A stretch of 64,000 bases of DNA. Origin: Blastocatellia bacterium (GTDB taxonomy: Bacteria > Acidobacteriota > Blastocatellia > UBA7656). Positions 10,173 to 30,362 of this stretch are shown here, piece by piece. The notes under the pieces are model-generated. The model did no database searches and was not told the origin of the DNA. It saw nothing but the letters and a program-made list of their open reading frames with translations. The DNA lies in the NCBI GenBank assembly GCA_963728545.1, contig CAVSKO010000002.1, positions 358,874 to 422,873 of the forward strand, in the 5' to 3' direction. The stretch's first letter is position 1. Every line of letters starts with the position of its first letter. The translations under genes and the position numbers were made by a program.

Positions 10173-10561
10173 TAGCGCCCCTCCTTTCTCGCCTCTTCTA
10201 TCAGCTTGGAAAGCCTGTCCAGGTCCGAAGCCGATAACTTGGACCGCGACATGTCAAGGAGCGTCGCCACCGCGTCTTCTGTCGAGTCGTCAAAAAACGT
10301 CTGTAGCATCTGCTTTAGCGCAGACTGCCTGGCTTTCTCGCGCGACACCGTAGGCAAGTAGACATATCGCAACCCGTCCATCTGGTGCTTCAACAATCCC
10401 TTTTCTTCAAGCAACCGCAGCATCGCCCGCACAGCCGAATAACTGGGCGGGTTTGGCAGGTCCTCCATCACATCGACCGCCGTAGCCTGCGCGCGCTTGT
10501 AAACGATGTCCATAATCTGACGCTCACGGCGGCTCAAATTCGTGTGCATCTGCTTTGTCAT
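10172..10561 (-). CDS. BlaI/MecI/CopY-family transcriptional repressor
   Basis: 129 aa; winged-helix Penicillinase_R pattern (LSRRERQIMDIVYKRAQATAVDV...SYSAVRAMLRLLEEKGLL); translationally coupled to downstream M56 transducer. Confidence 0.8.
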   Translation of the reverse strand: MTKQMHTNLSRRERQIMDIVYKRAQATAVDVMEDLPNPPSYSAVRAMLRLLEEKGLLKHQMDGLRYVYLPTVSREKARQSALKQMLQTFFDDSTEDAVATLLDMSRSKLSASDLDRLSKLIEEARKEGR

Positions 10562-10604
10562 CTGCGGCTCTCCTCTGAGAATCGAAATCGGCTTGAACTC
10601 GACG

Positions 10605-10620
10605 TGCTAATTTTTTAGCA
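10605..10620 (-). promoter_or_regulatory. candidate BlaI operator 1 (perfect palindrome tgctaa-TTTT-ttagca) overlapping putative -10 of blaI-operon promoter
   Basis: Read directly; on minus strand a TTGACT -35 and TAAAAA -10 (17-nt spacer) lie between the two palindromes. Confidence 0.4.
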
Positions 10621-10647
10621 TGTTGGATTTTTTAAGTCAACAAGAAA

Positions 10648-10665
10648 ATGCTAATTTTTTAGCAT
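10648..10665 (-). promoter_or_regulatory. candidate BlaI operator 2 (18-bp perfect palindrome atgctaattttttagcat) upstream of putative -35
   Basis: Second copy of same dyad 44 bp from first; two-dyad arrangement as in classical bla/mec operators. Confidence 0.4.
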
Positions 10666-10673
10666 CAGCTTGC

Positions 10674-10708
10674 AAAAAAATCGCTCTCGAATTCGAGAGC
10701 GATTTTTT
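10674..10708 (-). terminator. Rho-independent terminator (A-run, 11-bp perfect stem tcgctctcgaa/ttcgagagcga, T-run); bidirectional
   Basis: Perfect palindrome around GAATTC flanked by A7 and T6; immediately 3' of MacB-like permease (minus strand). Confidence 0.7.
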
Positions 10709-10715
10709 AGACCTG

Positions 10716-13142
10716 TTATTCGTACCGCAGCGCAATCATCGGGTCGACGCGGGTAGCTTTGCGCGCGGGGATATAGCTGGCGATCAAGGCCACAATCGCG
10801 AGGATCACGGCGACTCCTACAAAAGTGGCCGGGTCTATGGCCTTCACGCCATAAAGCAGGCTGGACATGAACTGCGTTACAATGAGCGCTCCGGCAAGCC
10901 CGATTGCCACGCCTATGCCGACCAGCACAAAGCCCTGCTGTATCACCATAGAAAGTATATGGCTTTGCTGTGCGCCTAACGCCATGCGTATGCCGATCTC
11001 GTGCGTCTGTTGAGCGACCGAATAGTTCATCACTCCGTAAACGCCTACAGCGGCAAGTATCAAAGCGACCGCCGCAAAAATGCCGAGCATAAGCATATTG
11101 AAGCGCGGCTGCGCGACCGAGCCGTAAACTATCTGCTCCATGTTGCGTATGTCGGCTACGGGTTGATCCGGATCGATTGAGGCGATCTCGTTCCTGACAG
11201 CGCCGACGAGGTTCGACGGGTCGCCTTCGGTTCTGACGGCCAGGAACATCTGCCTGGCAGGCGTTTGCTGATAAGGGAAGTATATAAACTCTCGACCTTG
11301 CGCGCTCAGGCCATAGTGTTTGACGTGCGCCACTACGCCGACGACTACCAGCCACGGGGCCGTCGATTGATTGCCGCCAATCTTGACTCTCTTACCGATA
11401 GGGTCTTCATTGGGCCAAAATCTTCTGGCAAAGGTTTCGTCGATTATGCAGACCATCTGAGCGCCTTGCGCGTCGTGGTCGTTGAAGACTCTGCCGGCCT
11501 TCACCTCTATGCCCATCGCCTCGAAATAGTCCGGGCTGGTAACTCGACGGTCGCATTCGAAGCTTGCGTTATCAACGCTTGCAGAAGGCTGCTCGACGGT
11601 CACGGTGCCCGATTGATAAGCGCCGCTCAGGGGAAGGTGTGACACGGTTCCTGCGGTCTTCACGCCCGGCAGCGCCCGCACGCGCTGTATGAGATTCTGA
11701 TAAAAAGGGGTGAGCTGCGCGGCGTCGGAGTACTTCGTCTGCGGGAGCCGCAGTCTGAGCGTGAGCAGATGGTCAGGTTTAAACCCCGGCTCTACTTCTT
11801 GCAGGCGAATAAAACTGCGTATCATCAGCCCCGCGCCCGTCAGCAGCATGAGAGCAAAAGCCACCTCTGCTACGACGAGCACGCTGCGAACCATACGCCC
11901 CCGCGCGCCGCCCGTAGACCCCCGGCCGCCTTCCTTGAGCGTCTCGTTCAGATCGGGTTTTGATGATTGAAAGGCGGGGACCAGTCCGAAAACGATCCCT
12001 GTCAGCATCGCTATTCCGATCGTGAATATGAGCACGCTGGCATCGATCGATACCTCGTTCAGGCGAGGGACATTATCCGGCGCAACCGCGATTAATGCTT
12101 TCAGCCCGAGATAAGCGAGCAACAACCCTATCGCACCGCTGAAGACCGCAAGCACGATGCTTTCCGTCAAGAGCTGGCGGATCAGACGCCCTCGACCTGC
12201 GCCGAGAGCGGTGCGTATGGCTATCTCTTTTTCTCTGGCGACAGCCCGCGCCAACAACAGGTTCGCGACGTTGGTGCAAGCGATCAGCAATACGAACCCC
12301 ACCGCGCCTAACAACATCCACAGCATTGGCCGCACGGTTTTTACCACGTGAGCGTGCAAGGGGACGATGTTTATGCCGAACCCGAATTTATAAAACTCAT
12401 TATCGAGATCGGCGGAAATCTGCTTCATCTCTTCTTGAGCCTGCGCGAGACTGTATTCGGGCTTTATGCGAGCGATTACGCGCATGCCGTGGTTGCCGCG
12501 ATTTTGCTGGCGAAAATCCGCCGCCATCGGCACCCATAGCTCAATGTTCCTCGGAGATTGAGCGTCGGGCGGCAGTATCCCGAAGCCGTCGGGCATCACG
12601 CCTATGACCGTGGCGTTCTGGCCTTCGAGCGAGATAGTTTGATTTATGATGCCGGGGTCGGAAGCGAAGCGACGTTTCCAAAACCCGTGACTCAGTATCA
12701 CGACCCTCTCTCCGCCGGGCCGGTCTTCGGCTTCGGTGAAGGACCGGCCTTGAGACGGTTGGACTCCGAGAGTAGGGAAGAGATTTGCGGTTACGGCTGC
12801 GCCCTGTAGCTGTTCAGGCTCTCCGACGCCCGTCAGGCTGACGCTCGGAAAACTCATCGCCGCAAAATCTTCTATCATCGTGCTGCGCTCTCTCATATCG
12901 GCAAGCTCCGGGCCTGAGACCCAGTTCTGCGGCAGGTCGGGCCCGAAATAAGTCCAGACCAGCACCAGCTTGTCGGGGCTCGCGTAAGGCAGAGGGCGCA
13001 GCAAGACGGTATTGACGACGCTAAAGATCGCGCTGTTTGCTGCAATCCCCAGCGCCAGCGCCAGCACCGCGATGATGGTGAAGCCCGGACGTCTAGCCAA
13101 CATGCGGAAAGAGTAGCGCAGGTCTTGTAGTAACGTATCCAT
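10716..13142 (-). CDS. MacB-like / FtsX-family ABC transporter permease with N-terminal MacB periplasmic domain (ADOP type), intact
   Basis: 808 aa; characteristic N-terminus [22 protein letters not shown]; two FtsX permease modules; overlaps ATPase gene stop (ATGA). Confidence 0.85.
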
Positions 13143-13843
13143 CAGGCGACCTCTACACTTTCTTCAACCACGCGCCCGTCGAACAGGTGTATCTGCCGGT
13201 CGGCGTGGCGGGCGTAGCGCGGGTCGTGCGTCACCATGCAGATGGTCGCCCCCGCGCCGTGAAGCTCTTGAAGCAGATCGATGACGGCCTCGCCGTTTGT
13301 CGAATCGAGATTGCCCGTAGGCTCGTCGGCCAGCAGTATGAGCGGGTCTCCGGCTACGGCGCGGGCTACGGCCACACGCTGCTGCTGGCCGCCCGACAAC
13401 TGGCTCGGCAGGTGTTTTGACCTGTGCGACATCCCGACCCGCTCAAGCGCATCCATCACTCGCTGCTTTCGCTCCGACGATTTCATTCCGCGATAGGTGA
13501 GCGGAAGTTCTACGTTTTCAAAGACCGTCAGGTCGCCTATTAGATTAAAGCTTTGAAATATGAATCCGACCTCGCGGTTGCGCACGCGCGCGCGCGCTGC
13601 CAGGGGGAGATCGGAAACCGGCTTGCCGTCCAGATACTGGTTGCCTTCCGTGGGAGAGTCGAGCAGCCCGAGAATCGAGAGCAGCGTAGATTTGCCGCAG
13701 CCCGACGGCCCGGCGATAGAGACGTACTCTCCTCTCTTTATTTCGAGATGAATGCCCGACAGCGCATGCGTTTCTACTTCATCGGTGAGAAAAACCTTAG
13801 TCACCCCTTCCAGGCGAATAAGCGGATGGTCAGCAGAGTTCAT
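13142..13843 (-). CDS. ABC transporter ATP-binding protein (MacB/LolD-type)
   Basis: Walker [13 protein letters not shown] signature [14 protein letters not shown], Walker [13 protein letters not shown]. Confidence 0.9.
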
Positions 13844-14165
13844 ACTTTCTTGTCCTCCGAAGATTTTTTTTCATACTTATCCCGCTTCTTTCGGTGCGCG
13901 TATGCAGTCTTAGACGTTACTACGCAGGATTCTGTTATCAAGGTGCATAATAATGAAGCACCCGATTCCTTATCTCTTAAGTAAAACTGCGCCAGTTGAA
14001 GTCCGAAGCCAAAAGGACTGCAAAAAGCGAATTTCAAATGACCGACTCCCCAACAAGCAGGCCTCAGGCTTTGGGCACTTTCTGTGAGTGGCGCGAGATA
14101 AAAAAAAGTTTCGAATTTTTTTTGCGTTAAAACGAGGGTGATCTTTAGCATGAAGATTGAAACGA

Positions 14166-14200
14166 GATGGACGCGGCTGTCGTACGGTTATCGAACTTTC
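14166..14200 (+). promoter_or_regulatory. possible ECF-type promoter (TGAAAC-N17-CGTA) upstream of ECF sigma gene
   Basis: Motif resembles sigW/ECF autoregulated promoters (AAC in -35, CGT in -10); sequence-only. Confidence 0.3.
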
Positions 14201-14355
14201 GTAGCCGTACGAAAGTCCCTTTTTTTCGAGAGACGGCACAAAAGCTGCAACCTTTTCATTGCGTCCGCCACTTACTGGTCGAAACGAGGATGAAGTGGCA
14301 AATGCTGGAAGCAATTAGCCTGGTGGGCCAGCCGAGCGGACGCGCCGGGGCTCTG

Positions 14356-14922
14356 ATGAACAGTTCAGAAGAACTCATTTCGCGCGCCCGCCGTGGCGAT
14401 GATGAAGCCTTCCGCCTGATCTTCGAGCGGTACGGCAGACCCATCATCAGCTTCATCTACGACATGGTGGGTCAGCGAGACCTGGCCGAAGAGTTGACGC
14501 AGGAGACTTTTGTGCGCGCTTACAAAAACATCGGCGGTCTGAGAGATGAGACGAAGCTGTTAACCTGGCTGTTCGGCATAGCCAAGAACGTGGCGCGCGA
14601 GTTGATACGCGCCCGCTATAAAGATGACGGCAAAGTCGGCATAGATGATGACCGCGTGATGGAATTGAGCGATAATAATCTTCTGCCCGAAGACGTGCTT
14701 TTGAACAAAGAGCTGAACGGAGTGATTCAAACCGCGCTCGGGGCGCTCGATGAAGATAAGCGATTGGTCTTTTCGCTCAAAGTGTTTCAGCAGCGGAGCT
14801 ACGAAGAGATTGCGGAGATAACCGGCTTTTCTATTCCAAAGCTCAAGACCGATCTGCATCGCGCGAGGACGGAGATGCGCCGCCGCATCCGTCCATATTT
14901 GGGAGCTAGCAATGAAGTGTGA
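14356..14922 (+). CDS. RNA polymerase sigma-70 factor, ECF subfamily (ORF track start 14167 probably over-extended)
   Basis: Region 2 (FRLIFERYGRPIISFIYDMVGQRDLAEELTQETFVRAYKNI) and region 4 HTH (SYEEIAEITGFSIPKLKTDLHRAR); 3' end overlaps anti-sigma start. Confidence 0.8.
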   Translation: MNSSEELISRARRGDDEAFRLIFERYGRPIISFIYDMVGQRDLAEELTQETFVRAYKNIGGLRDETKLLTWLFGIAKNVARELIRARYKDDGKVGIDDDRVMELSDNNLLPEDVLLNKELNGVIQTALGALDEDKRLVFSLKVFQQRSYEEIAEITGFSIPKLKTDLHRARTEMRRRIRPYLGASNEV

Positions 14923-15772
14923 AGATTATCTTCCTATGATCGAAAGTTATGTTGACGGCGAGCTTGACGGCACAACCGCTCAACGCATCCGGACGCACCT
15001 TACCACGTGCGACTCTTGCCAGGATTTCGTGGCGGAGTTGAGGCAGGAGCAAGAGGTGTACGCGCTTTACAACCGCGAGGTAGACATAACGCCCGCGATG
15101 TGGGCCGCTGTCCAGGCGAGGATTGAAAAAGCGAAGCCCGCCCGCTCCTCAAGCGTTTTTGAGGGCGTGAGCAATTGGCTTCGAGGGTTGGTCGGAACGC
15201 CGCGCTTAAGCCCTGCTCTCGCGGCCGCGCTAATCATAATGACCGTCGGCACAACCGTAGTCGTAATGAAGTACCTGAATTCACCCGATAAACCCGAAGT
15301 TCAGCAGATGGCCGACGCGCGCGAGCCGAAAACAAGCGAAGAGAAGAAAGTTGTACAACCGCAAACCGGAGAGTCGCAGCCGCCAATCGTGGCAGAGACG
15401 AATCCGGTGGTGAAGCCTCCCACAGGCGGTAAGCCTGATGAAGAGATCAAAGTGCCCGGGCGTCAAAGAAACGCCGTAAAGCAACCCGCTGTCAAGCCTC
15501 AGCCTACGCCGGAGCAGCTTGTGCGCGAAGCCGAACAGAAATACTTGAGCGCGATTGCGATTCTTGAAAAAGACTTTGATCGCAACAAGTCTAAGCTTGA
15601 CCCTGCGATTGTCGTGCGATTCGAAAAGGCAATGGTAGACATCGACAACACGATTGCCGAAACTCGGCGGGCCGTGCGCGAGAATCCTGATGACCCGATA
15701 GCATTGCAATACATGCTCTCGGCTTATGCAAAGAAAGTTGACGTGCTCAGAGAGATGGCAAGAAGTAATTAA
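14912..15772 (+). CDS. anti-sigma factor, zinc-finger (zf-HC2) type with one TM helix
   Basis: N-terminal HxxxCxxC-like motif (RTHLTTCDSCQDF), central hydrophobic helix, overlap with sigma gene. Confidence 0.7.
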   Translation: MKCEDYLPMIESYVDGELDGTTAQRIRTHLTTCDSCQDFVAELRQEQEVYALYNREVDITPAMWAAVQARIEKAKPARSSSVFEGVSNWLRGLVGTPRLSPALAAALIIMTVGTTVVVMKYLNSPDKPEVQQMADAREPKTSEEKKVVQPQTGESQPPIVAETNPVVKPPTGGKPDEEIKVPGRQRNAVKQPAVKPQPTPEQLVREAEQKYLSAIAILEKDFDRNKSKLDPAIVVRFEKAMVDIDNTIAETRRAVRENPDDPIALQYMLSAYAKKVDVLREMARSN

Positions 15773-15847
15773 CGAGTCACTCCCTGTTCAGACAGAGATA
15801 ATTCTAAGGATGTGCGTCAGGCATAAATTGAGCCTGAGTTCATAGTA

Positions 15848-17026
15848 ATGTTTATGAAAAGAAGAACGCTAATAATTTTAATACTCCTCGTCTTCGCATC
15901 GAGCGTGGCAGGCATTGGCGAGAGGGCCGATGCCTCGATCATGCCCGGCGGAGGGCAGAAAGAAAAAGAGAAGCCTACGACAAAGGTTACTCCGAAAGTG
16001 GCGCCGAAGGTGACCATTAAGCCGGACGTGAATGTTGACCCGCAGGTTGCCTCGACCGCACCAGATCAACCGAGTCAGGTGTCGGTCAAGTTAGATCGCG
16101 GGGGCAAGGTCGTCGTCGTAAACCGAAGCGGCGAAACCCGCATTACCGGATGGGACAGCGATATGATCGAAGCCCGCGCCGTAGGCGAGGAAGGGCCGGA
16201 GGCTGTGCAGGTCCGAGTGTCCGGCGAAGGCGCTCGCTCTCGCGTTGTTTTATCTGTGCCAGCTTACAATTCGCGGCGTCATAGCAGCGAGATCAGCCTA
16301 GAGATCAAGCTGCCGCGTTACGCGGACCTCGAATCGATCGAGAGCCAGCGCGGCGATATTGACATCACGGGTCTTGACGGCACCGTTGCGGTCTCGACCG
16401 CGCACGGTTCGCTTACGATCAAGAATGTCGGCTCGCTCAAGGCCGCGACTCGCAACGGCGAGGTCACGGTCGCAGGCGTCAAAGGTGATGCATCTATCAG
16501 GAGCTTGAACGGCGATCTGACTATAGACAACGTCTCCGGCTCGGTCGATCTGGCGGCGACAAATGGGAACGTCATAGCTCGCGGCACAGGAGGCAACATC
16601 CAGGTCAACTCGGCTTCGGGCGACATCGATCTGCATTGCGTAAAAGGTAATGCGACGGTGAATACTGCAAGCGGGGCGATCATGCTGGTCGGCGTCGGCG
16701 GAAATATAGAAGCCAACACCGCGAGCGGCGATGTGATCTTCAAAGGCGCTATGCGCGCAAGCGGCAGTTACAGATTAAAGTCGATTTCAGGGGCTGTAGA
16801 GATGGCCGTTCAGCCCGACCCTCCGGGTTTCACCGCGACGCTGATTACCTATAGCGGCGAGATCGAAACAGATTTTCCGCTGACCGTCAACGCGCCGCTC
16901 ACGGGACCTATCAACCGGCGCATAGTCGGCGTGTACAAAGACGGCCAGACACAGATAACGCTCGATTCCTTTAGCGGGACCGTTAGCATAGTTAAAGCGA
17001 CAGGTCCCCCGACGGGGTGCAAATAG
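15848..17026 (+). CDS. DUF4097 (putative adhesin / LiaG-like beta-helix repeat) protein, secreted
   Basis: Signal peptide; repeated motifs GxVxVxxVxGDAxIxSLNGDLTIDNVSGSVDLAATNGNV. Confidence 0.7.
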   Translation: MFMKRRTLIILILLVFASSVAGIGERADASIMPGGGQKEKEKPTTKVTPKVAPKVTIKPDVNVDPQVASTAPDQPSQVSVKLDRGGKVVVVNRSGETRITGWDSDMIEARAVGEEGPEAVQVRVSGEGARSRVVLSVPAYNSRRHSSEISLEIKLPRYADLESIESQRGDIDITGLDGTVAVSTAHGSLTIKNVGSLKAATRNGEVTVAGVKGDASIRSLNGDLTIDNVSGSVDLAATNGNVIARGTGGNIQVNSASGDIDLHCVKGNATVNTASGAIMLVGVGGNIEANTASGDVIFKGAMRASGSYRLKSISGAVEMAVQPDPPGFTATLITYSGEIETDFPLTVNAPLTGPINRRIVGVYKDGQTQITLDSFSGTVSIVKATGPPTGCK

Positions 17027-17093
17027 TTTTTCAACTTAGAATGTTCAACGGCTCGAAGCGGCACATTCCGCAACAAATTTGGAGAGGTGAAAA

Positions 17094-17915
17094 ATGAGAA
17101 CAAAAATCAACAAGCTGATCGGTATCATGCTAACAGCAATCTTCGTGTTGGCAGTTGCTTATCAACCTTCTGTGGCATCTGCTCAAAGAGACGACGATGA
17201 TTCGCGAAGCGATTTGCCGGAGCGCGAAGAGATCCGCCAGAGCTATGAGCTTTCGTCCGGCGCAACCGTGATAGTCGAAGGCATCAACGGCACCGTAGAT
17301 ATTGAGACGACAAACGGACAGACCGCTGAGGTTCACATAGTTCGTTCTGCGGCGACGAAGGATGATTTGAATTATCACAAAATATTGATCGAGCACTCGG
17401 GCAGCCGTCTCGTGGTTCGGGGCGAAAACGACCGCGAGCGCGACCGCGCCTCGCGAGGCCGCAAAGTCCGTCACCGCGTAACGATGAAGATTCCGCGCAG
17501 AGTCGATCTGACGACGAGCGGCGTCAACGGTCGTGTCAATATCGGCGAAGTTGACGGCCCCGTCAAAGTCAGCGGCATCAATGGCCGCGTCAACGTCGGG
17601 CAGGCCATAGGCTACATGGAGATTTCAGGGATAAACGGCGCGGTGACGGTAACCATTGCGCAGCTCAGCCAGCGCGGCATTGAGGTGAGCGGCATCAACG
17701 GTCGCGTGGAGCTGCGCTTCACCGAAGACATCAACGCCGACCTGGAGGTGACGGGCATTAACGGAAGCGTCCAGGCCGATATGCCCAACGTGACCATCTT
17801 TGGCAAGATAAGTCGCGATAATTTCCGCGCGCGAATAGGGTCGGGCGGGACGCCGATACAGATGTCAGGCATTAACGGCGGCGTGCGCATAGCTCGCGCT
17901 TCGAGCGCAGGCTAA
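17094..17915 (+). CDS. DUF4097 repeat protein, secreted
   Basis: Signal peptide; repeats SGINGRVNVG / SGINGAVTVT. Confidence 0.7.
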   Translation: MRTKINKLIGIMLTAIFVLAVAYQPSVASAQRDDDDSRSDLPEREEIRQSYELSSGATVIVEGINGTVDIETTNGQTAEVHIVRSAATKDDLNYHKILIEHSGSRLVVRGENDRERDRASRGRKVRHRVTMKIPRRVDLTTSGVNGRVNIGEVDGPVKVSGINGRVNVGQAIGYMEISGINGAVTVTIAQLSQRGIEVSGINGRVELRFTEDINADLEVTGINGSVQADMPNVTIFGKISRDNFRARIGSGGTPIQMSGINGGVRIARASSAG

Positions 17916-17931
17916 ACGCATTCACTTTCAG

Positions 17932-19899
17932 GTGGCTGTAATGTTGAGACTCAAAACATCTCACCGCAGAGACACAGAGAGCACAGAGGGGGCGCAGAGA
18001 AAACCAACCTCTGCTCTGCGCCCCCTCTGTGCTCTCTGTGTCTCTGCGGTGAGTCTTCTTGTAATAACCTTTTCTACGATTATCGCTGGTGCGCAGACCG
18101 CCGAAGAGTTCCGGGCGGAATTTCATCAGACGTATCCTCTCGCCGCGACAGGGCGGATCAACGTGAAGAATGTTTCGGGCGCTGTCCGCATCATCGCGTG
18201 GGACCGCAACGAGGTAAAGCTGGATGCAGTAAAGACTGCGCAGTCGAAAGAGAGTCTCGACGAAGCGGAGATCAAAGTAGAAGCCACCGCAAACGCCATT
18301 CAAATCCGTACCAGCTATCCTAATGATTGTTGCTTTTACTCGGAGGAGTGCTGCGAGAAGCGGTTTTATAGAAGCCGCGAATCCCGGCTCGCCTCGGTCG
18401 AATATAGCCTGATGGTCCCGCGAAATGCTCGCTTGGAATCCGTCGAAGTCATAAAGGGCAACGTGAAGATTGACGGCCTTTCAGGCTCTATCAATGCTTC
18501 CACGGTCATCGGCGAGGTTGACGCAAAACTTAATCGGCTCGCAGATTCTAATTCGATCACTTTAAGCTCGCTTACGGGCGGCATTCTTTTAACCATTCCT
18601 TCTGACTCGCACGCCATTGTGATCGCGCGGTCGCTTTCCAGCGAAATAACTAATGATTTCGGGCTGACGATAAATCGCGGGGAGTTCATCGGTCGCAACA
18701 TCGCGGGCCGACTCGGACGAGGCGGCGCGCGAGTGACGCTCGATAATATCACGGGCACTATCGCCGTCCGCCGCCTTTCGGACGGGCGCACGCCGAGCGC
18801 CGCGACGAACGTCAATCCTCAAACGGTGAGAGGCGAGACAGAGGCTAACCAGACTCTCGCTCGCCGCATAGTCGCGAGGGCGCGGCAACAGGCTCAACAG
18901 GCCGTCAACAATTCGGTCGATATTTCTCAAGCAATGCGCGATGTGCGGCGCGAGGTCGCTCGCGCGATGCGCGAAAGCTTGCCGATAGCCATCAGCATAG
19001 CAGTGCCGCAGATAGTCATAACTCCTGCGCCGGAAGCTAGAGTGCAGCCGCCTCGCGCTACTCGTGCGCCTCGCCCACCTCGCCCACCACGCTCGACACC
19101 ACCGGAAGCTCCGTCAACGCCGTCCCCGACGCCGACTCCAACAGCGCCTCGTGCCGAGCCGATCTATTTTAGAGTTAACGAGACGGAATCGAAATCTTTT
19201 ACCTTGAGCGGTGTCAGTCGTATCAACCTCGACACCTTCGACGGCCCGATAACGGTTCGCGCCTGGGACAAACAAGAGGTGTTGATAACGGCTACGAAAA
19301 AAGCCCGCGATGAAGAGGCGATGCGCAGTGCGCGAGTTCGGTTCGAGCAGCGCGCGGGAGAGGTCGTGGCAATTGCCCGATTCGATGATCCGGCAGGCGA
19401 GCGCGATAGCGCGGATGCCCAGGTCCATCTCGACGCATTCGTTCCGCGAAAAGCAAATCTCCGCCTCGCGACGAGCGACGGCAGGCTCTTTGTCGAAGGC
19501 GTGTCGGGCGAAATGGAACTGCGCACCGATGATGGAGAGATACGAGTAGCAAACGGGGCGGGCCGTCTGCGCGCCAACACAAGCGACGGCCAGGTTCAGG
19601 TCACGAAATTCAACGGCGACGTCGACGCTCGGACAAATGACGGGCAGATACTGTTGGAGGGACGTTTCAATTCTCTGAGCGCGCGAACGGGCGACGGAAC
19701 CATAACACTATCTCTTCCGGCAAGCTCTAACGCGACGATAGAGACTGCCGCCGAATCGATCATCATAGACGGTCTCAGAGTGACTGAAGAGGGCGATTCT
19801 GCGAGCCGGTTGAGACGTTGGAAAGTAGGCGCGGGCGGGACGGTCTTTTCGCTTCGCACAGGAGACGGGCGAATCGTGTTGCGCCGGTCGGGCGCATGA
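17932..19899 (+). CDS. two-module DUF4097 repeat protein with Pro/Thr-rich linker (start uncertain; 5' end overlaps palindromic repeat copy A)
   Basis: Two DUF4097-like repeat regions separated by PPRATRAPRPPRPPRSTPPEAPSTPSPTPTPTAPR. Confidence 0.65.
   Translation: MAVMLRLKTSHRRDTESTEGAQRKPTSALRPLCALCVSAVSLLVITFSTIIAGAQTAEEFRAEFHQTYPLAATGRINVKNVSGAVRIIAWDRNEVKLDAVKTAQSKESLDEAEIKVEATANAIQIRTSYPNDCCFYSEECCEKRFYRSRESRLASVEYSLMVPRNARLESVEVIKGNVKIDGLSGSINASTVIGEVDAKLNRLADSNSITLSSLTGGILLTIPSDSHAIVIARSLSSEITNDFGLTINRGEFIGRNIAGRLGRGGARVTLDNITGTIAVRRLSDGRTPSAATNVNPQTVRGETEANQTLARRIVARARQQAQQAVNNSVDISQAMRDVRREVARAMRESLPIAISIAVPQIVITPAPEARVQPPRATRAPRPPRPPRSTPPEAPSTPSPTPTPTAPRAEPIYFRVNETESKSFTLSGVSRINLDTFDGPITVRAWDKQEVLITATKKARDEEAMRSARVRFEQRAGEVVAIARFDDPAGERDSADAQVHLDAFVPRKANLRLATSDGRLFVEGVSGEMELRTDDGEIRVANGAGRLRANTSDGQVQVTKFNGDVDARTNDGQILLEGRFNSLSARTGDGTITLSLPASSNATIETAAESIIIDGLRVTEEGDSASRLRRWKVGAGGTVFSLRTGDGRIVLRRSGA
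17951..18060. repeat. palindromic intergenic repeat, copy A (~40-bp arms ctcaccgcagagacacagagagcacagagggggcgcagag / reverse complement, loop aaaaccaacc)
   Basis: Near-perfect inverted repeat read directly; homologous copies at ~41899..41992 and ~53182..53286. Confidence 0.8.
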
Positions 19900-20224
19900 C
19901 AGAAAGATCGCTTTTCTTGTTAACGGATCGTCACGGGGTCGCGTCTTAAAAAGTGGAGTTGGGCGCAAAAACGAATAGTCGCAGGGTCGGGTAATCTGAA
20001 ACTGACATCAAGTTTTTATGACTCGCGGGCGCTTTTACTTTTAAAGGCCGCGCCCGAAAAGATGGGGCTTGCGCGTGAGCCTGAAAGAGATTCAAAAAAA
20101 TAATGTTTATTCAAACAAATGGAACATTTATCCGCGCTCGCTCGTCTAAAAAAAAGGCACTTTTGATGCTCTCATTCAATAATTAATTTGAGAAGGCGCG
20201 GATCGGATAAGCAGTTGGGGTTCA

Positions 20225-22708
20225 GTGGAGTTGGTTATGATTAAATGTATAGTGGTGACTTTTGCATTGGTGCTTTGCCTGCTGGCGGTTAACACACAGG
20301 CTGCACAGCAGGATGCAGCAGCTTCGAATGGTTCATCTAATGCAGCAAAACCCGCCGACCCAAAACACGTAACAGTTCCCCCCGAAAAAGCGAACCCCGT
20401 AACGATACCTAAATTTGATAAACCGCCCGTAATCAACGGCAAGCTCGATGATGAGGTGTGGAAGACGGCGGTTGTGCTAAAGAATTTTTATCAAGTACAG
20501 CCGGGCGATAACATAGCCCCATCGAAACCCGCCGAAGTCCTTCTCGGATACGACAGCAAGACCTGGTATATAGCTTTCCGCTGCCCGGACGAGCCGGGCA
20601 AGGTTCGCGCTACGGTTCCGAAGCGCGATAACATCTGGGAAGACGACAACGTCGGGATGTTTATTGACACCTTTAACGATAAGCGCAAAGCGTACGCTCT
20701 TTTTTTTAATCCCATTGGTATTCAAGCCGACGGCACGCTGACAGAGACAAACGAAGATTACAGCCTCGATATAGTTATGGAGTCGAAAGGCGTAGTGAAC
20801 GAAGACGGGTACACCGTCGAGATTGCTATTCCTTTCAAATCGCTCAGGTATGAAGCGGGCAAAGGCAAGCTCTGGGGCGCTCACTTTTTCCGCCGCATCA
20901 AGCGTTTCAACAACGAGCTGAATTCATGGATGCCGCTCGACCGCAGCAAGTCGAGCTGGATAGCGCAAGAGGGGCACCTCGCCGGGTTGGAAGGCATTAC
21001 AACCGAGCGGCAGCTTGAGCTCATACCGACGCTGACCGTTTCGCAATCGAGCCGTAGAGTGAGCACGCTTTCGGTGGGTGCGATCAATGCCAATCCGTTT
21101 ATCGTAGACCCCGGTCGCATGGTCAACAGCCCGTCGAACCTCGACCCAGGTCTTTCGGTTAAGCTCGGCATAACGCCGAACGTGACGCTAGATTTTGCGG
21201 CCAACCCCGACTTCGCTCAGGTCGAAGCCGATCAACCCGTCATAACGGCCAATCAACGCTTCCCGATATTCTTCGCCGAAAAGCGGCCCTTCTTTCTTGA
21301 AGGCATAGACATTTTTCAGACGACGATTGCTGCCGTTCACACGCGGGCGATAGTCGACCCGGACTATGCGGCAAAGCTGACGGGGAAAATCGGGAAAAAC
21401 ACTTTCGGGTTTCTGGCGGCTTCCGACAACGCGCCGGGCAATTTTAGCGAGGATGAGATAAATGACCCTGAAATCTTTCCTGACATAGAGAGATTCATCG
21501 ACAAGAACGCTTATATCGGCGTGTTGAGGCTGAAGCGAGACGTAGGAAAAGAATCGAGCGTGGGTTTTCTGGCGACGAGCTATAACTTTATTGAACGCCA
21601 TAACCAGCTTGCGGGCTTCGACGGGCGGTTCAAGCTCGACAAGCAGACCGTTTTCTCTTTCCAGGTGCTTGGCACTACGACCCGCAGCTACTTCTACGAG
21701 CCGGAGATTGACCAGAGCATTTATAGGACGGGGAACGGCCTGGTCTACTACGCGGGCCTCGATAAAACGGGTCGCAACTTCGGCTATTACGCTGAAGTGC
21801 TGGGGCGGACGCGAGACTATCGCGCAGACGTAGGCTTTACGCGGCGCACAAACACAAACAGCGGTTTTCTCTTCATGCGCTATAACAATGACGCGAAGCC
21901 GAAGGCGAAACTCATCTCGTGGCGCGTGTCGAATGCAGCCGGCGTGAATTACGATTTCCAGGGCCGTATGCAAAACTGGAACAATGAATCTCAATTGCAG
22001 ATCAGGGTTCCCGGCAATACTTATCTCGGATTCGGCGTTGAAGAAGGCTACGAGAAATTGATTGAAGAAGAGTTCGGCCCCCTGCGCACGGCGACACAAC
22101 TCGGGGCTTTCTTTGGGCCGGATTCGGAGCGTTCGGCGCACCGCAAATCGCTCTACTGGTATGTCGAGACAGCGCCGAGCAAGAAGTATTCGATATTTGT
22201 CTTCACGTCGAGAAACTGGGGGGCGCTTGACCTGGACTTCGGCGGCGGGCCTCGGTTCCCGCGCGTCAGCCCCGCTGCTTTAGTCGATCCCGATGCGCGG
22301 CTCGATCCCGGAGCAGGCAATACATGGTTTGTTGACGGGATCGTCACTTACAAGCCTATCAACGCTTTGAGCACATCGCTCGGCTTTACAAAGAGCAGGC
22401 TTGTGAGAAGTGACACTGCGCTGCTGGCGTTTGACGACAACATCTTTTCGTGGCGCACGACCTACCAGTTTACGCGGTTCACCTTCTTGAGGGCGCGGCT
22501 CGATTATGACACGCTCGCATCAAGCGTTCGCGGGCAGTATCTGTTCGGATGGACGCCGAATCCGGGAACGTCGTTTTACGTGGGCTATAACGATGACCTG
22601 AGCTATAACGGGTTTGACCAGTTCACGGGGAATTCTTTGCCGGGCTTCCGGCGAAACAACAGGACGTTTTTTATAAAGACCTCCTACCTGTTCCGCCGCA
22701 GCCTTTAA
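20225..22708 (+). CDS. CBM9-like / DUF5916 domain protein (predicted outer-membrane or secreted), paralog 1
   Basis: Signal peptide; N-terminal carbohydrate-binding family 9-like block (KFDKPPVINGKLDDEVWK...FYQVQPGDN); long beta-rich C-terminal region ending ...FFIKTSYLFRRSL. Confidence 0.65.
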   Translation: MELVMIKCIVVTFALVLCLLAVNTQAAQQDAAASNGSSNAAKPADPKHVTVPPEKANPVTIPKFDKPPVINGKLDDEVWKTAVVLKNFYQVQPGDNIAPSKPAEVLLGYDSKTWYIAFRCPDEPGKVRATVPKRDNIWEDDNVGMFIDTFNDKRKAYALFFNPIGIQADGTLTETNEDYSLDIVMESKGVVNEDGYTVEIAIPFKSLRYEAGKGKLWGAHFFRRIKRFNNELNSWMPLDRSKSSWIAQEGHLAGLEGITTERQLELIPTLTVSQSSRRVSTLSVGAINANPFIVDPGRMVNSPSNLDPGLSVKLGITPNVTLDFAANPDFAQVEADQPVITANQRFPIFFAEKRPFFLEGIDIFQTTIAAVHTRAIVDPDYAAKLTGKIGKNTFGFLAASDNAPGNFSEDEINDPEIFPDIERFIDKNAYIGVLRLKRDVGKESSVGFLATSYNFIERHNQLAGFDGRFKLDKQTVFSFQVLGTTTRSYFYEPEIDQSIYRTGNGLVYYAGLDKTGRNFGYYAEVLGRTRDYRADVGFTRRTNTNSGFLFMRYNNDAKPKAKLISWRVSNAAGVNYDFQGRMQNWNNESQLQIRVPGNTYLGFGVEEGYEKLIEEEFGPLRTATQLGAFFGPDSERSAHRKSLYWYVETAPSKKYSIFVFTSRNWGALDLDFGGGPRFPRVSPAALVDPDARLDPGAGNTWFVDGIVTYKPINALSTSLGFTKSRLVRSDTALLAFDDNIFSWRTTYQFTRFTFLRARLDYDTLASSVRGQYLFGWTPNPGTSFYVGYNDDLSYNGFDQFTGNSLPGFRRNNRTFFIKTSYLFRRSL

Positions 22709-22717
22709 TTAGTGGTC

Positions 22718-22770
22718 GGGGCTTAGAGGCTAGAGATCAAAGATCAGGGACTCGCCTCTAAGCTCTGACC
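22718..22770 (+). terminator. imperfect 17-bp stem-loop after DUF5916 paralog 1
   Basis: ggtcggggcttagaggc ... gcctctaagctctgacc read directly; no clear T-run. Confidence 0.35.
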
Positions 22771-22939
22771 CATATAACGCGCCGTAGTTCATTGTAGTTT
22801 ATCGGATGGCCAACGGCAGCAAACGGACCTTAAAGATTGTGATTGAATTATAAATCTGTGGCAGGGTTGATTAATCGCAATCGAGACAGGCTTAATAATT
22901 ATTTAGACGGACCGACGCCCCTTTAATTCGAGAGTAAGA

Positions 22940-25411
22940 ATGTTCGTTATGAAATTTATATCCGCTCTATTTGTGCTCGCCGTATGCGCGATTTCGCTTT
23001 GTGCGCAGACTCAACCGATAGAATCTTCTGTTGCGACCGGCACGACCTCTGCCGCGAAGCCCGCCGGGCCGAAATCCGTCACGGTGCCGCCCGAAAAGGC
23101 GCAACCCGTCAGCGTCGTCCGCTTTGAAAAACCGCCCGTGATTGACGGCAAGCTCGATGAAGAAGTCTGGAAGCAGGCGGCCATGCTAAAAGACTTCTAC
23201 CAGACACAGCCCGGCGACAACATCGCGCCGTCGCAACGCACAGAGGTTCTACTCGGCTATGACAGCAAATTTCTTTACGTCGCGTTTAAAGCCTACGATG
23301 AAGCGGGCAAGGTGCGCGCGACCGTGGCAAAGCGCGACGCCGTCTTTGACGACGACAACGTGCGAATCGTGCTCGACACGTTCGACGACAAGCGCAAGGC
23401 TTACGTATTTGTCTTCAACCCCTTTGGCGTCCAGGCCGACGGCATACTGACCGAAGGGCGCGGCGAAGATTACAGCGTCAATGTCGTGATGGAGTCGAAG
23501 GGCATAGTGACCGAAGACGGCTATTTCGTAGAGATCGCGATCCCTTTCAAATCCCTCCGCTACACTGCCGGTAAAGACAAACACTGGGGCGTCCACCTGT
23601 TCCGCCGAATCAAGCGGTTCGACAACGAGCTTGATTCGTGGATGCCGATCTCGCGCGATATATCGGGCCTGCTGAACCAGGAAGGCCGAATCACGGGCCT
23701 TGAAAACATCGCCTCGGAGCGCACGCTTGAAATTATTCCGACCTTCACCATTTCAGAGACCGGAAAGAGAATCGCTGCCCAGGCTTCGGTTAACGATCCG
23801 ATGCTTGCCGACCGGGGCCGCTTTTTAAACAGGCCCGCCGAATTTGACCCCGGTGTGAACGTCAAGCTGGGGATCACTCAAAGCGTGATACTGGATTTTG
23901 CCGCCAACCCCGACTTCGCTCAGGTCGAAGCCGATCAACCCGTCATAACGGCCAATCAACGCTTCCCGATATTCTTCGCCGAAAAGCGGCCCTTCTTCCT
24001 TGAAGGCATAGACATTTTTCAAACGCCGCTGACCGCAGTCCACACGCGGGCGATAGTCGACCCGGACTATGCGGCAAAGCTGACGGGCAAAGTTGGCCGC
24101 AACACGTTCGGCATGATTCTCGCGTCGGACAACGCGCCAGGCAACTACAGCGAAGAGGAGCGGACGAACCCGGATATCTTTCCGCGCATCGAAAGATTCC
24201 TCGACAAGAATGCTTATATCGGCGTGCTCCGCGTGAAGCACGATGTCGGGAAAGAGTCGAGCATAGGGCTGATAGGCACGAGTTATAACTTCATTGAAAA
24301 GCACAGCCACCTCGCAGGCATCAACGGTCGTTTCAAGGTAGATAAGCAGACGACTTTCAACTTCCAGGTGCTTGGCACGAATTCGCGCGCCTTCTTTTAT
24401 GAGCCTGCCGAGGATAAGAGTATTTACAGGACAGGAAACGGGTTTGCTTACAACGCGGCCTATTTTTACGGAGGCCGGAACTTCAGTTGGGAGCTGTACG
24501 GCGAGGGGCAGACGCAAGATTATCGCGCCGAAGTGGGGTTTAATTCGAGAACGAATACAAACTTCAACAGCGTTTTTCTGGGCTACAACTCGACGCCCAA
24601 GCCGAAAGCTACGCTGATCTCGTATCACGTGCACAACTTCACGCACATCGATTACGACTTTCAAGGCCGCATGCAAATCTGGGAAAGCGAGTTCGCCGCC
24701 GAGCTTGGCTTGAGCCGGCAGACCTATGTAGGGGGTGGATACGAGCGGGCTTATGAACGAGTTTTTGAGGAAGAGTTCGGAGCAATTCGAACGGCGACCA
24801 GGACGGGCGCATTCATAGGCGATGATTCGGAGCGTTCATCGAACAAGCATCACTTTTTCCTCTGGGGCGGGACAAAGCCAAGCAAAAAATTCGGCTCCGA
24901 TTTCAGGGTCGTTTACCGCGTGGGCCATTTCGATTATGACTTCGGCGCGGGTCGCCGGTTCCCGCGAGTAAGCCCGGCCGCGCTCGTTGACCCTGATGCG
25001 GCATTTGACCCGGGTCGCGGCGGCCTTTTCGAGTTCAGAGCGAACGTGTTCTATCAACCTTCTGACGCTTTGAACACGACATTCAGTTACACGAAAAACC
25101 GTTTGACTCGTTACGACACAGACCGCGTGGCTTTCGACGACAATATCTTTTCTTCGCGCACGACTTACCAGTTCACCAGATTTTTGTTCGCGCGCGCGCG
25201 GTTGGATTACCTGACGCTCAGCTCAAGGGTGCGCGGGCAATACCTGATCGGGTGGACGCCGAATCCGGGAACGTCGTTTTACGTAGGCTATAACGACGAT
25301 ATGAATTACAACGGCTTCAGCCCGTTCACAGGGACTAGAGAGGACGGAATGCGACTCAACAGTCGCACGTTCTTTATAAAGACCTCTTACCTGTTCCGCC
25401 GTAGCTTGTAG
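22940..25411 (+). CDS. CBM9-like / DUF5916 domain protein, paralog 2
   Basis: ~65-70% aa identity to 20225..22708 over full length; identical C-terminus YLFRRSL. Confidence 0.65.
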   Translation: MFVMKFISALFVLAVCAISLCAQTQPIESSVATGTTSAAKPAGPKSVTVPPEKAQPVSVVRFEKPPVIDGKLDEEVWKQAAMLKDFYQTQPGDNIAPSQRTEVLLGYDSKFLYVAFKAYDEAGKVRATVAKRDAVFDDDNVRIVLDTFDDKRKAYVFVFNPFGVQADGILTEGRGEDYSVNVVMESKGIVTEDGYFVEIAIPFKSLRYTAGKDKHWGVHLFRRIKRFDNELDSWMPISRDISGLLNQEGRITGLENIASERTLEIIPTFTISETGKRIAAQASVNDPMLADRGRFLNRPAEFDPGVNVKLGITQSVILDFAANPDFAQVEADQPVITANQRFPIFFAEKRPFFLEGIDIFQTPLTAVHTRAIVDPDYAAKLTGKVGRNTFGMILASDNAPGNYSEEERTNPDIFPRIERFLDKNAYIGVLRVKHDVGKESSIGLIGTSYNFIEKHSHLAGINGRFKVDKQTTFNFQVLGTNSRAFFYEPAEDKSIYRTGNGFAYNAAYFYGGRNFSWELYGEGQTQDYRAEVGFNSRTNTNFNSVFLGYNSTPKPKATLISYHVHNFTHIDYDFQGRMQIWESEFAAELGLSRQTYVGGGYERAYERVFEEEFGAIRTATRTGAFIGDDSERSSNKHHFFLWGGTKPSKKFGSDFRVVYRVGHFDYDFGAGRRFPRVSPAALVDPDAAFDPGRGGLFEFRANVFYQPSDALNTTFSYTKNRLTRYDTDRVAFDDNIFSSRTTYQFTRFLFARARLDYLTLSSRVRGQYLIGWTPNPGTSFYVGYNDDMNYNGFSPFTGTREDGMRLNSRTFFIKTSYLFRRSL

Positions 25412-25610
25412 AGGCGCAGGGCCGTTTTATGTCAACTTTTTTGCATTTCGTGAAACTTTCCTTCGGCTTATGGCACTGACTGTGTGTCAGGCAAGATCGT
25501 CTTGCGCCTACCATCTCCCCGCTCGCGAGGCGCGAGGCGAATTATTTGGAACTTGAGCGCAGCAGTGGGCGAATAATTACCTGACGATCACTCAAAAAAC
25601 GAAGGAGGAC

Positions 25611-26610
25611 TTGAACGTCATGAAGCGAGTTTTATTACTCTCATTAGCCTTTTCGCTGTCTTGCGCCTCAGTTGGTTTGGCAGCTACAGACCGGTCGCAA
25701 GAAGCGACAACTACGGAAGCTCCTGTAGCAGTCGTCGCGGCGCAGGAACGGGGCAGCTATCTGGGCGTAGGTCTCGACGAGGTGATGCCGGAGACTGTCG
25801 CTCGGCTGAAGCTAAAGGCAGAGCGGGGGGCGGTTGTAATAGATGTCGTGGCCGACAGCCCCGCGGCAAAAGCAGGTCTTCAAAGAGATGACGTAATCGT
25901 CAGGTGGGACGGCGAGCAGATTGAGAGCGCCATACAGCTTTCGCGATTGAGGCGCGAAACTCCTGTTGGCCGAACCGTGCGGCTCGGCATCGTCCGCGAC
26001 GGGCGCGAGATGGAAGTGAGCGTGCAACTCGGAGAAAGACCTGAGCGGGTTCTCAAGAATCAGACCCAGAGTAGTCACGCCGCGCCCGGCTCGGACTCGT
26101 TTCATCAGGCCGGAAAGGGCGCCGAGAGCAAGGACGATCATTCGCGGTCCTATAGGGATGCAGATGCTCAGTCTCACGCCGCAGATGGCCGAATACTTCG
26201 GCCTTGGGCAGCGGTCGGGCGCGCTGGTTACCTGGGTGGATCAGGATTCTACGGCAGCGAAGGCGGGGCTTAAAGCGGGAGACGTGATTCTCTCGATCAG
26301 CGGCGAGACGGTCGACGGCCCCAGTAATGCCTGGCGCACGCTCCGTCAAAAGGCGGGCGAGACGGTCGAGATAAAAGTGATGCGCGACCGAAAAGAACAG
26401 AGCCTCACCGTGACGCTTGAAAAGAGCACGGCGACCTCGTGGATAATCGAGCCGGGCGACATCAATATATCTATTCCGGTCGCGCCGATTGCTGTTCCGA
26501 TGCCGCACATCGAATTGCCGGCTCTGCCCGCGATGCCTGTAATGCCAAAGATCCACATAGCTCCGATAGCGGTGCCGTTCGTGCGCATGACTTATAGGAT
26601 TTTGATCTAA
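25611..26610 (+). pseudogene. secreted tandem-PDZ protein, apparently frameshifted between ~26041 and 26157 (ORFs 25611..26273 and 26158..26610)
   Basis: Signal peptide + PDZ 1 (GVGLDEV...VVADSPAAKAGLQRDDVIV) in frame 3; PDZ 2 (LTPQMAEYFGL...DQDSTAAKAGLKAGDVILSISGETV) in frame 1; second ORF would start inside a PDZ fold. Confidence 0.5.
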
Positions 26611-26654
26611 GTTCGCCGGTTTCACTCTCATGGGCATTTCCTGATAACCGAGCG

Positions 26655-26760
26655 GACTTAAAAGGAGACGGGGAGAAAGACACGGAGAGAGGGGACGCGG
26701 CGACGCGGCTGAGGATTACCCAATCTCTGTGTCCCCGTCTCTCTGTGTTGCCGTACTGCT
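26655..26760. repeat. degenerate relative of the palindromic repeat family (copy B)
   Basis: Shares cacagagag / ctctgtg and gagacgggga / tccccgtctc motifs but arms only partly complementary. Confidence 0.3.
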
Positions 26761-27199
26761 CTCGCGGATGAGATTTTACCTGTTTCCCACTGCCTCTCTT
26801 CCTTGATCGCTCGACGGAAAGCAATTACTGAATCCTCAGGCACTTTATTGTTGACACGGTCCAAGGTAGATGTTACAAGGTACTCGGCTGAAAGGTTGAT
26901 TGAAGCTATGCCGTCTTGTACGGCTTCCGGCGCGGGATCCCTCATCGAGCATGCCTCGATTCCTGTTGTGCGCCTCAAAGTGCCCCCTGACCAGTAAAAT
27001 GTAGTATCTGTCGGTTTGTTGCTCCCCTCGTTTGCCTTCTCTCAGCATTAGCAAGCACGCACCTCATCGGTCAATATGCATGGACCGCATAGGCGACCGT
27101 TTGAACCTGGCAATGGCGCGCGCTATTGCCGGATTTAGGAGCATCGAGCGAGCGTTAGTGGACGCTCAGTATGAACAAGGCAGAGCTAACTGGTAAATT

Positions 27200-28942: not shown

Positions 28943-29036
28943 TTTTAGATTTTTGATTTTGGATTAAGGATTGCGCGCCGACCCATCAGAGCTTCGGTCC
29001 CACAATACAAAATCTAGAATCCAAAATCTAAAATCG
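28941..29036 (+). terminator. AT-rich imperfect hairpin between pilB and pilT (gattttagatttt... / ...aaaatctaaaatc), GC-rich loop
   Basis: 13-bp perfect + extended imperfect stem read directly. Confidence 0.4.
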
Positions 29037-29047
29037 CCGGAGGTTAT

Positions 29048-30217: not shown

Positions 30218-30221
30218 AAGC

Positions 30222-30362
30222 AAAGGATGAAGTATGAGGGATGAAGGATGAAAAAGAAACAAGCCTCGGTTCTGAAATCTGAGATTTGCGATTTTAAATC
30301 CGCGCCGCGCGCAAGCGCATCATGCGCCATATTCATCCTTCATCCCTCATACTTCATCCTTT
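30222..30362. repeat. 31-bp perfect inverted repeat (aaaggatgaagtatgagggatgaaggatgaa) flanking a 79-nt spacer, directly 3' of pilT
   Basis: Arms 30222..30252 and 30332..30362 are exact reverse complements. Confidence 0.8.

Follow-up and report, generated by a model that had tools for sequence, protein, structure and literature searches.

A candidate cell-envelope-stress module in Blastocatellia: an ECF sigma factor, a zinc-binding anti-sigma factor, and exported toastrack proteins

Pairs of an extracytoplasmic function (ECF) sigma factor and its anti-sigma factor accompanied by conserved accessory genes are common, and the locus analyzed here raises the question of what such accessory genes do: are the exported toastrack (DUF4097) proteins encoded behind one of these pairs partners of the anti-sigma factor, or products that are simply made along with it? 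The locus lies in a 64,000-nucleotide stretch of Blastocatellia bacterium DNA (assembly GCA_963728545.1, contig CAVSKO010000002.1, positions 358,874 to 422,873 of the forward strand), referred to below as the window. On its plus strand the genes for an ECF sigma factor, a zf-HC2 anti-sigma factor, and the toastrack proteins T1, T2, and T3 follow one another, with an ABC transporter operon diverging on the minus strand. The sigma factor, the membrane anti-sigma factor, and two to three exported toastrack proteins constitute a real operon, kept across the Blastocatellia, a class of soil Acidobacteria. The reading favored here, to which we assign a probability of roughly 45%, is that of an autoregulated cell-envelope-stress module in which the toastracks would partner the anti-sigma factor.

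The sigma operon and its conservation

The genes of the operon are closely packed. The anti-sigma ATG at 14912 precedes the sigma stop codon at 14920-14922, giving an overlap of 11 nucleotides (nt), and the gaps that follow, from the anti-sigma gene through T3, measure 75, 67, and 25 nt. A first-pass annotation of this DNA had reported the gene identities, the sigma/anti-sigma overlap, the export signals, the T3 double module, and the divergent ABC operon, all of which hold. The coordinates of all features are collected in Table 1.

A scan using one genome per species yielded 80 loci with sigma factors 68-95% identical, all from Blastocatellia or Pyrinomonadaceae, the closest being L001, a Blastocatellia metagenome-assembled genome whose sigma factor is 95% identical. 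Synteny was counted over the 61 loci with at least 4.5 kb of sequence downstream of sigma. T1 directly follows the anti-sigma gene in 48 of these 61 loci, and T2 is present as well in 45. The 48 loci with T1 are exactly those whose anti-sigma factor carries a three-helix C-terminal domain (48/48), while T1 and T2 are both absent from every locus in which the anti-sigma factor lacks it (13/13). In L040, the only one of these 13 toastrack-less loci in which this was examined, HEAT-repeat genes occupy the toastrack position. Orthologs of T3 occur only in L001 and L002, the two closest genomes, and extra T2-like or T3C-like paralogs of their own (T3C being a module of T3) are found in L003, L006, L014, L016, L024, L038, L057, L059, and L071-73, the number of toastrack genes ranging from 2 to 4. 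The conserved core is a tetrad of sigma factor, anti-sigma factor, T1, and T2, shared by two families. Since additional paralogs have joined this core in separate lineages, expansion is recurrent, and the earlier description of a three-fold DUF4097 expansion as unusual was overstated: the core holds two toastrack genes, and third and fourth paralogs arise repeatedly in relatives. For the conservation of sigma/anti-sigma/DUF4097 triads, which had previously been presented as established knowledge, the only traceable source was a general comment about toastrack-sigma neighborhoods in the survey of Ravi et al. 2024 (PMC11237479), which places toastrack genes beside sigma-type regulators and beside an ABC ATPase with its permease.

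The sigma factor matches Pfam Sigma70_r2 (51.9 bits, cutoff 24) and r4_2 (45.6 bits, cutoff 25.7), along with the NCBIfam sigma70-ECF model TIGR02937 (94.9 bits, cutoff 42.9), and has neither region 1 nor region 3, as is characteristic of ECF (group 4) sigma factors. RpoE is its top NCBIfam match, with no equivalog cutoff reached by RpoE, SigW, or any other model. The nearest solved sigma factors are SigW (5WUQ_A, E 8e-23), AlgU, and sigma-E (1OR7, E 3.7e-20). An earlier placement of the start at 14167, corresponding to the longest open reading frame (ORF), finds no support, as all 77 orthologous upstream regions point to a conserved ATG at 14302. In these 77 related loci the frame runs without a stop for 20 codons or more before the 'MNSS' methionine (14356 in the window). 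The extension peptide encoded at 14302-14355 is conserved, with nucleotide differences between orthologs that are mostly synonymous by eye on the alignment; it reads MLEAISLVGQPSGRAGAL in Blastocatellia and MMKRLAIEA... in Pyrinomonadaceae. ATG 14302 is preferred over 14290 because a 1-nt indel separates the two ATGs in L013, L021, and L023. The open frame, the conserved ATG, and the conserved peptide therefore indicate a protein of 206 aa with a short N-terminal extension. In a few ECF groups, extensions of this kind are regulatory, acting on stability or activity (PMC7826278).

The anti-sigma factor comprises an anti-sigma domain (residues 1-78), a transmembrane (TM) helix, a disordered linker of variable composition (129-185), and a three-helix bundle (200-285), as predicted in an AlphaFold2 (AF2) model with 59 sequences. 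The sole TM segment is located at 99-122 (101-122 in the AF2 model). The N-terminal domain forms four helices with a predicted local distance difference test (pLDDT) score above 90, and the C-terminal bundle has a pLDDT of about 93. Residues C3, H29, C33, and C36 are invariant in the 59 sequences, providing the H-x3-C-x2-C motif together with the fourth ligand. The anti-sigma domain matches RsiW (5WUQ_C, E 3e-4) as well as RslA, with a weak match to the RsrA family. Judged by its sequence, the protein is a class I, zinc-binding anti-sigma (ZAS)-type factor, for which sigma inhibition and zinc binding are predicted. Its best conserved part is the periplasmic three-helix domain, in which Y211, A214, I215, D261, P262, Y272, and K275 are invariant. 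This domain has no Pfam match, and comparison of its fold with the Protein Data Bank (PDB) gave only generic helical bundles (E of at least 0.13), none significant. A word-indexed sequence search with the domain found only fragments from the same clade; an exhaustive profile search returned 2468 cluster representatives (441 at E<=1e-10), the best 150 of the 2468 all being orthologs.

Among the toastrack proteins, T1 and T3 pass the Pfam PF13349 cutoff of 22.9 bits, with 76.6 bits and 58 bits (in two stretches), respectively. The AF2 model of T1 (predicted template modeling score 0.74) shows a beta-helix spanning residues 78-383, preceded by a signal helix and a disordered segment, and its top Foldseek matches are 4QRK (E 3.3e-6, probability 1.0), 3PET, 3LYC, 3JX8, and 4OPW, of which 4QRK and 4OPW are named as reference toastrack structures (PMC11237479). 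T1 also contains two almost invariant cysteines, C264 and the penultimate C391.

T2 of the window has no Pfam match even at E<=10 and thus falls outside PF13349. The T2 and T1 families can be aligned over their full length (hhalign 98.1%, E 1e-13), 9 of 26 T2 orthologs match PF13349, T2 matches the beta-rich C-terminus of LiaX (1e-7), and BLASTP of T2 against the T3N module of T3 gives 4e-12. By profile-profile comparison, the DUF4097 matches of its orthologs, and the LiaX match, T2 is assigned to the toastracks. The earlier count of three secreted DUF4097 proteins accordingly stands for T1 and T3 by Pfam, and for the export signals, while T2 counts as a toastrack by profile comparison and through its orthologs only.

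T3 starts at ATG 17941, with a Shine-Dalgarno sequence AGGTGG 5 nt before it, and its proposed organization as a double module with a Pro-rich linker was confirmed by two DUF4097 stretches in Pfam and, between them, a linker in which 19 of 57 residues are Pro. The T1, T2, T3N, and T3C modules are all mutually related at 19-30% identity. Every toastrack protein has a single hydrophobic segment, located at its N-terminus, and T1 and T2 orthologs start with signal-type sequences. T1 and T2 are not orthologs of LiaG or LiaX, since their scores lie far under the equivalog cutoffs (T1 against LiaG 70.2 bits, 1.6e-19, cutoff 285; T2 against LiaX 30.9 bits, cutoff 350). The first module of T3 carries a Cys-rich insertion, NDCCFYSEECCEK (residues 127-142, about 18320-18350), which could form a cluster of disulfides or bind a metal in the exported protein.

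Promoter-like elements and the predicted regulon

An element designated class A, with the consensus cTG(A/C)AAC(C/T)TTT-N13-CACT(A/T)AC and a spacer of variable sequence, is found ahead of the sigma gene, 20-30 nt before its ribosome-binding site, in virtually all loci of the two families. In the window, the implied transcription start is about 20 nt before ATG 14302, just 5' of a GAGGA Shine-Dalgarno sequence. A position weight matrix (PWM) built from the sites upstream of sigma gave only three matches of at least 19 bits on both strands of the window, namely the sigma, ABC, and PDZ sites, against an expectation of 0.005 per shuffled window. Applied to 958 kb of loci, the PWM gave 111 matches of at least 15 bits, versus 0 in ten shuffles. 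Correctly oriented class-A sites before genes other than sigma number 31, preceding the divergent ATPase gene (19 loci), T2 or T2-like genes (about 9), the PDZ gene (L008 and L009), and a DUF5916 gene (L075). The motif of the PDZ gene recurs at an unchanged distance in L008 and L009, where it scores 33.6 and 20.6 bits, respectively. Within the operon of this window, no class-A motif is present.

The class-A element is bipartite, has a spacer of fixed length, stands upstream of sigma, is conserved, and is repeated before linked genes, which are the properties of an autoregulated ECF promoter. In the -35 half, the sequence is the same as the tGAAACnTTTt version of Bacillus subtilis ECF promoters (PMC5758882). 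Class A is most likely the pattern of an autoregulated ECF promoter with a small regulon, its predicted reader being the sigma factor of the operon.

The first-pass annotation had likened a different element, the distal TGAAAC-N17-CGTA, to autoregulated ECF promoters. A conserved bipartite element does exist there: in about 24 of 37 Blastocatellia loci, and in no Pyrinomonadaceae locus, TGAAACG-N16-CGT[AT] occurs some 195 nt ahead of the 'MNSS' ATG (14356), its spacer varying throughout. Its position is 14158-14184 instead of 14166-14196, and the class-A motif 88 nt downstream is the stronger candidate. The bare TGAAAC-N17-CGTA pattern shows no enrichment in the window (3 matches, 1.25 expected), and support for the distal element comes entirely from its conservation in relatives. 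A terminator-like hairpin sits between the distal and class-A elements (14195-14226, the hairpin with its T7 run at 14195-14216; 9-bp stem, loop GCCG, then CCCTTTTTTT); its interpretation as an attenuator or small RNA was dropped because 22 relatives retain neither the hairpin nor any significant fold (z mostly -2 to +2). A scan of the region for sigma-70-type promoters gave no more matches than chance.

Further ECF-type elements occur downstream. TGGAACA-N16-CGTCTAA is kept upstream of the orthologous DUF5916 gene in at least 12 loci. The element before the PDZ gene, GGAACTT-N15-CGAATA, aligns with TGGAAC-N16-CGAgTAAT, conserved at equal distance in 9 of 12 PDZ loci. It had been listed earlier at low confidence; its coordinates proved exact and conservation now backs it, the spacer being 15 nt and not 16.

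Neighboring genes and the T3 palindrome

Table 1. Features of the sigma operon and its surroundings, numbered from the first nucleotide of the window
Feature	Position	Strand	Size	Details
ADOP-family duplicated MacB-type ABC permease	10716-13142	-	808 aa	NCBIfam and Pfam
ABC ATPase, divergent from sigma operon	13142-13843	-	233 aa	Pfam ABC_tran, 2.1e-34
Class-A motif facing ABC operon	14081-14115	-		-35 CGAAAC 14113-14108; -10 CACTCAC 14090-14084; 21.8 bits
Distal ECF-type element	14158-14184	+		TGAAAC-N17-CGTA
Class-A motif before sigma	14244-14278	+		-35 TGCAAC 14246-14251; -10 CACTTAC 14269-14275; 39.3 bits
ECF sigma factor	14302-14922	+	206 aa	Conserved 18-aa N-terminal extension
Class-I zinc-binding anti-sigma factor	14912-15772	+	286 aa	zf-HC2, 39 bits (cutoff 22.2)
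T1, exported toastrack/DUF4097 protein	15848-17026	+	392 aa	Pfam E 2.5e-21
T2, exported divergent toastrack protein	17094-17915	+	273 aa	Profile comparison
T3, double toastrack	17941-19899	+	652 aa	Module 1, helical segment, Pro/Thr/Arg-rich linker, module 2
REP-like palindrome	17962-18054 (repeat element 17958-18058)			Perfect 40-bp stem, inside 5' coding region of T3 signal peptide
Sigma-E-type element	20120-20149	+		TGGAACA-N16-CGTCTAA, before first DUF5916/CBM9 gene
DUF5916/CBM9 gene	20237-22708	+		
Tandem paralog of DUF5916/CBM9 gene	22940-25411			
Class-A motif upstream of tandem-PDZ gene	25449-25483	+		19.0 bits
ECF-type element before PDZ gene	25548-25575	+		GGAACTT-N15-CGAATA, about 72 nt before PDZ ATG
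Exported tandem-PDZ gene	25620-26610	+		ATG 25620; one PDZ_2 domain per ORF

The divergent operon encodes a MacB-type (type VII) exporter of the ADOP subfamily, recognized by its duplicated FtsX/MacB_PCD permease and separate ATPase. The permease, a member of the acidobacterial ADOP family, scores 1042.9 bits against NCBIfam TIGR03434 (cutoff 622.3) and contains two MacB_PCD and two FtsX domains in Pfam, and the best NCBIfam matches of the ATPase are DarD, LolD, and MacB-type ATPases. This operon diverges from sigma in 16 of 61 loci with sufficient upstream sequence, all 16 from closer Blastocatellia. Its long leader (about 13893-13956, minus strand) holds a second conserved block, TGCACCC...GGAACGTAATTA...TGTATA, common to about 19 loci, which could serve as an additional promoter or be bound by a regulator. 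Genes for a BlaI-type repressor (129 aa, Penicillinase_R) and a fusion of a BlaR1-type M56 peptidase with HEAT repeats (682 aa) come immediately after the ABC operon, on its downstream side (8124-10561, minus strand).

On the other side, the DUF5916/CBM9 gene follows the sigma operon in Blastocatellia and directly precedes it in many Pyrinomonadaceae. In 11 loci, the tandem-PDZ gene, whose product has no protease domain, is found in synteny with the sigma operon. In the window it is split over two frames (ORFs 25611-26273 and 26158-26610); L008 and other relatives have one uninterrupted ORF of about 340 aa. The split reflects a frameshift, a pseudogene, or an error in sequencing. Type IV pilus or type II secretion system (T2SS)-type genes follow at 27200-31643, comprising a PilB/GspE-like ATPase (580 aa), a PilT-like ATPase (389 aa), and a PilC-like platform protein (408 aa), recognized by eye from their translations. 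An Rfam scan of 10000-27000 gave no match.

The 5' end of T3 contains a repetitive extragenic palindromic (REP)-like palindrome with a folding energy of -91.7 kcal/mol (z = -16), its left arm encoding HRRDTESTEGAQRK and its right arm the hydrophobic core of the signal peptide, LRPLCALCVSAV. Two further copies, at about 41905-41985 and 53184-53275, bring the number in the window to three; both are situated between convergent genes and flanked by A-rich and T-rich runs, resembling bidirectional terminators. L001 and L002 hold the palindrome in frame, with indels of 6, 3, and 6 nt and some compensatory changes between the arms.

A proposed circuit, its alternatives, and its significance

Taking the class-A motif as its own promoter, the sigma factor would boost expression of its own operon and also activate the genes for the ABC exporter, the PDZ protein, and additional toastracks. 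At rest, the cytoplasmic zinc domain of the anti-sigma factor would keep sigma at the membrane, with the exported toastracks binding the periplasmic three-helix bundle and setting the stability of the anti-sigma factor, a pairing likened to RseB on RseA, or to the toastrack-type domains of LiaF and LiaX on LiaS. Perturbation of the envelope would lift this protection, regulated proteolysis would destroy the anti-sigma factor, and sigma would be freed. T2, being sigma-dependent in this scheme, is proposed to close a negative feedback loop, and T3 would be a recent lineage-specific addition with a signal peptide encoded by the REP-like palindrome. The toastracks are most likely periplasmic partners of the anti-sigma factor because of their fixed position, their perfect co-occurrence with its domain, and the LiaF/LiaX precedent, in which the beta-domains of LiaF and LiaX keep a membrane sensor inactive until envelope damage occurs (PMC10269926). 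Somewhat more tentative is a sharper form of this proposal, in which the exported toastracks would act as periplasmic co-anti-sigma sensors, docking on the undescribed three-helix domain of the zinc-binding anti-sigma factor and gating its proteolysis; the MacB-type exporter would be the principal output. Such control of an ECF sigma factor, rather than of a two-component kinase, would be a first for toastrack domains, and it would be extracytoplasmic, in a diderm.

Several points weigh against the autoregulated module with toastrack partners. Toastrack domains were predicted by Ravi et al. 2024 to be intracellular, beneath the membrane (PMC11237479). In the window, no site-1 or site-2 protease was identified, nor any PrsW- or RasP-type protease. 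The class-A -10 sequence, CACTWAC, is unlike the CGTA/CGTC of the closest characterized relatives, and the presence of a second ECF-type element before sigma and of others before the DUF5916 and PDZ genes makes the pairing of sigma factors with elements ambiguous. The co-occurrence of toastracks and three-helix domain is not phylogenetically independent, as the 13 toastrack-less loci may represent only 2-3 clades. The hairpin of -92 kcal/mol may block T3 expression.

The main alternative is that the toastracks are outputs, periplasmic or surface proteins with a structural or protective function that would be co-expressed with an anti-sigma factor sensing alone. The own class-A promoters of toastrack genes in some relatives, resembling those of regulon members, fit an output role and a negative-feedback role alike. 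Paralog number varies freely from 2 to 4, the PDB relatives of T1 are annotated merely as putative adhesins, and we know of no demonstrated regulatory role for LiaG, all of which suits outputs. Mere co-expression is nevertheless the less likely explanation in view of the perfect co-occurrence of the toastrack genes with the periplasmic domain of the anti-sigma factor, their fixed place directly after the anti-sigma gene in 48 loci, and the action of LiaF-, LiaX-, and VraT-type toastrack domains as regulators.

Regarding the promoter, the resemblance of the sigma and anti-sigma factors to SigW and RsiW, whose promoter is TGAAAC-N16-CGTA (PMC5758882), together with the conservation of the distal element with a variable spacer in about 24 loci, allows the distal TGAAAC-N17-CGTA to be taken as the SigW-like autoregulatory promoter, leaving class A to another sigma factor or regulator. 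This assignment is improbable, however, given that the distal element is absent from all Pyrinomonadaceae and about one third of the Blastocatellia loci, where the sigma factors are 68-82% identical, that its bare pattern is neither enriched in the window nor seen upstream of linked genes, and that class A is universal and placed at the classic distance from the start codon. As for the signal, a mainly cytoplasmic thiol/redox switch of the RsrA kind, in which oxidation of Cys3/His29/Cys33/Cys36 frees sigma and the periplasmic parts are incidental, would account for the four invariant ligand positions, the Cys as first ligand as in RsrA, and the weak RsrA-family match. The membrane anchor and the strongly conserved periplasmic domain favor an extracytoplasmic input instead, many zinc-binding anti-sigma factors (RsiW, RslA) are not redox sensors, and the predicted regulon contains ABC exporter, PDZ, and toastrack genes but no thiol-repair genes, so that a redox switch seems very improbable.

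Compared with characterized systems, the proposed autoregulated module most resembles B. subtilis SigW-RsiW in its proteins, these being the nearest solved sigma factor and anti-sigma domain, with RsiW also a single-pass, zinc-binding class-I protein; a -35 TGAAAC with a T-tract and an autoregulated sigma gene adjoining the anti-sigma gene are shared as well. It differs in its -10 sequence (CACTWAC versus CGTA), in an extracytoplasmic anti-sigma part that is an unrelated three-helix bundle, in the addition of two to three exported toastrack genes, in its diderm acidobacterial host, and in the lack, noted above, of an identified PrsW-/RasP-type protease. Escherichia coli sigma-E/RseA/RseB offers a similar order of sigma factor, membrane anti-sigma factor, and periplasmic accessory protein or proteins, which in the present locus are proposed to bind the periplasmic domain of the anti-sigma factor, along with autoregulation, PDZ proteins in the circuit, and a related sigma factor. 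RseA, however, is not zinc-binding, and the PDZ protein of the locus has no protease domain. Because RseB is not a toastrack, equivalence to it is by analogy only. The Lia/Vra toastrack regulators (LiaF, LiaG, LiaX, VraT, YvlB) share the domain superfamily but act on two-component kinases, not on ECF anti-sigma factors, and are membrane-anchored or Gram-positive surface proteins. Unlike the cases in the survey of Ravi et al., the toastracks of this locus carry N-terminal export signals, and the module, the promoter, and the anti-sigma domain are not described there. A literature search found no description of the module, the class-A promoter, or the periplasmic domain of the anti-sigma factor.

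Blastocatellia abound in soil and are difficult to culture, and to our knowledge almost nothing is known experimentally about their regulation. The locus represents a compact, testable circuit, with a sigma factor 68-95% identical across the class, a sharp candidate promoter, and a small predicted regulon comprising the ADOP/MacB exporter, the PDZ protein, and the toastrack proteins. ADOP permeases are a large family, and a link to an envelope-stress sigma factor would place this family in a physiological context for the first time. Should the toastracks indeed be partners of the anti-sigma factor, the known role of a widespread domain would extend from the Gram-positive Lia/Vra systems to ECF signaling in diderm bacteria.

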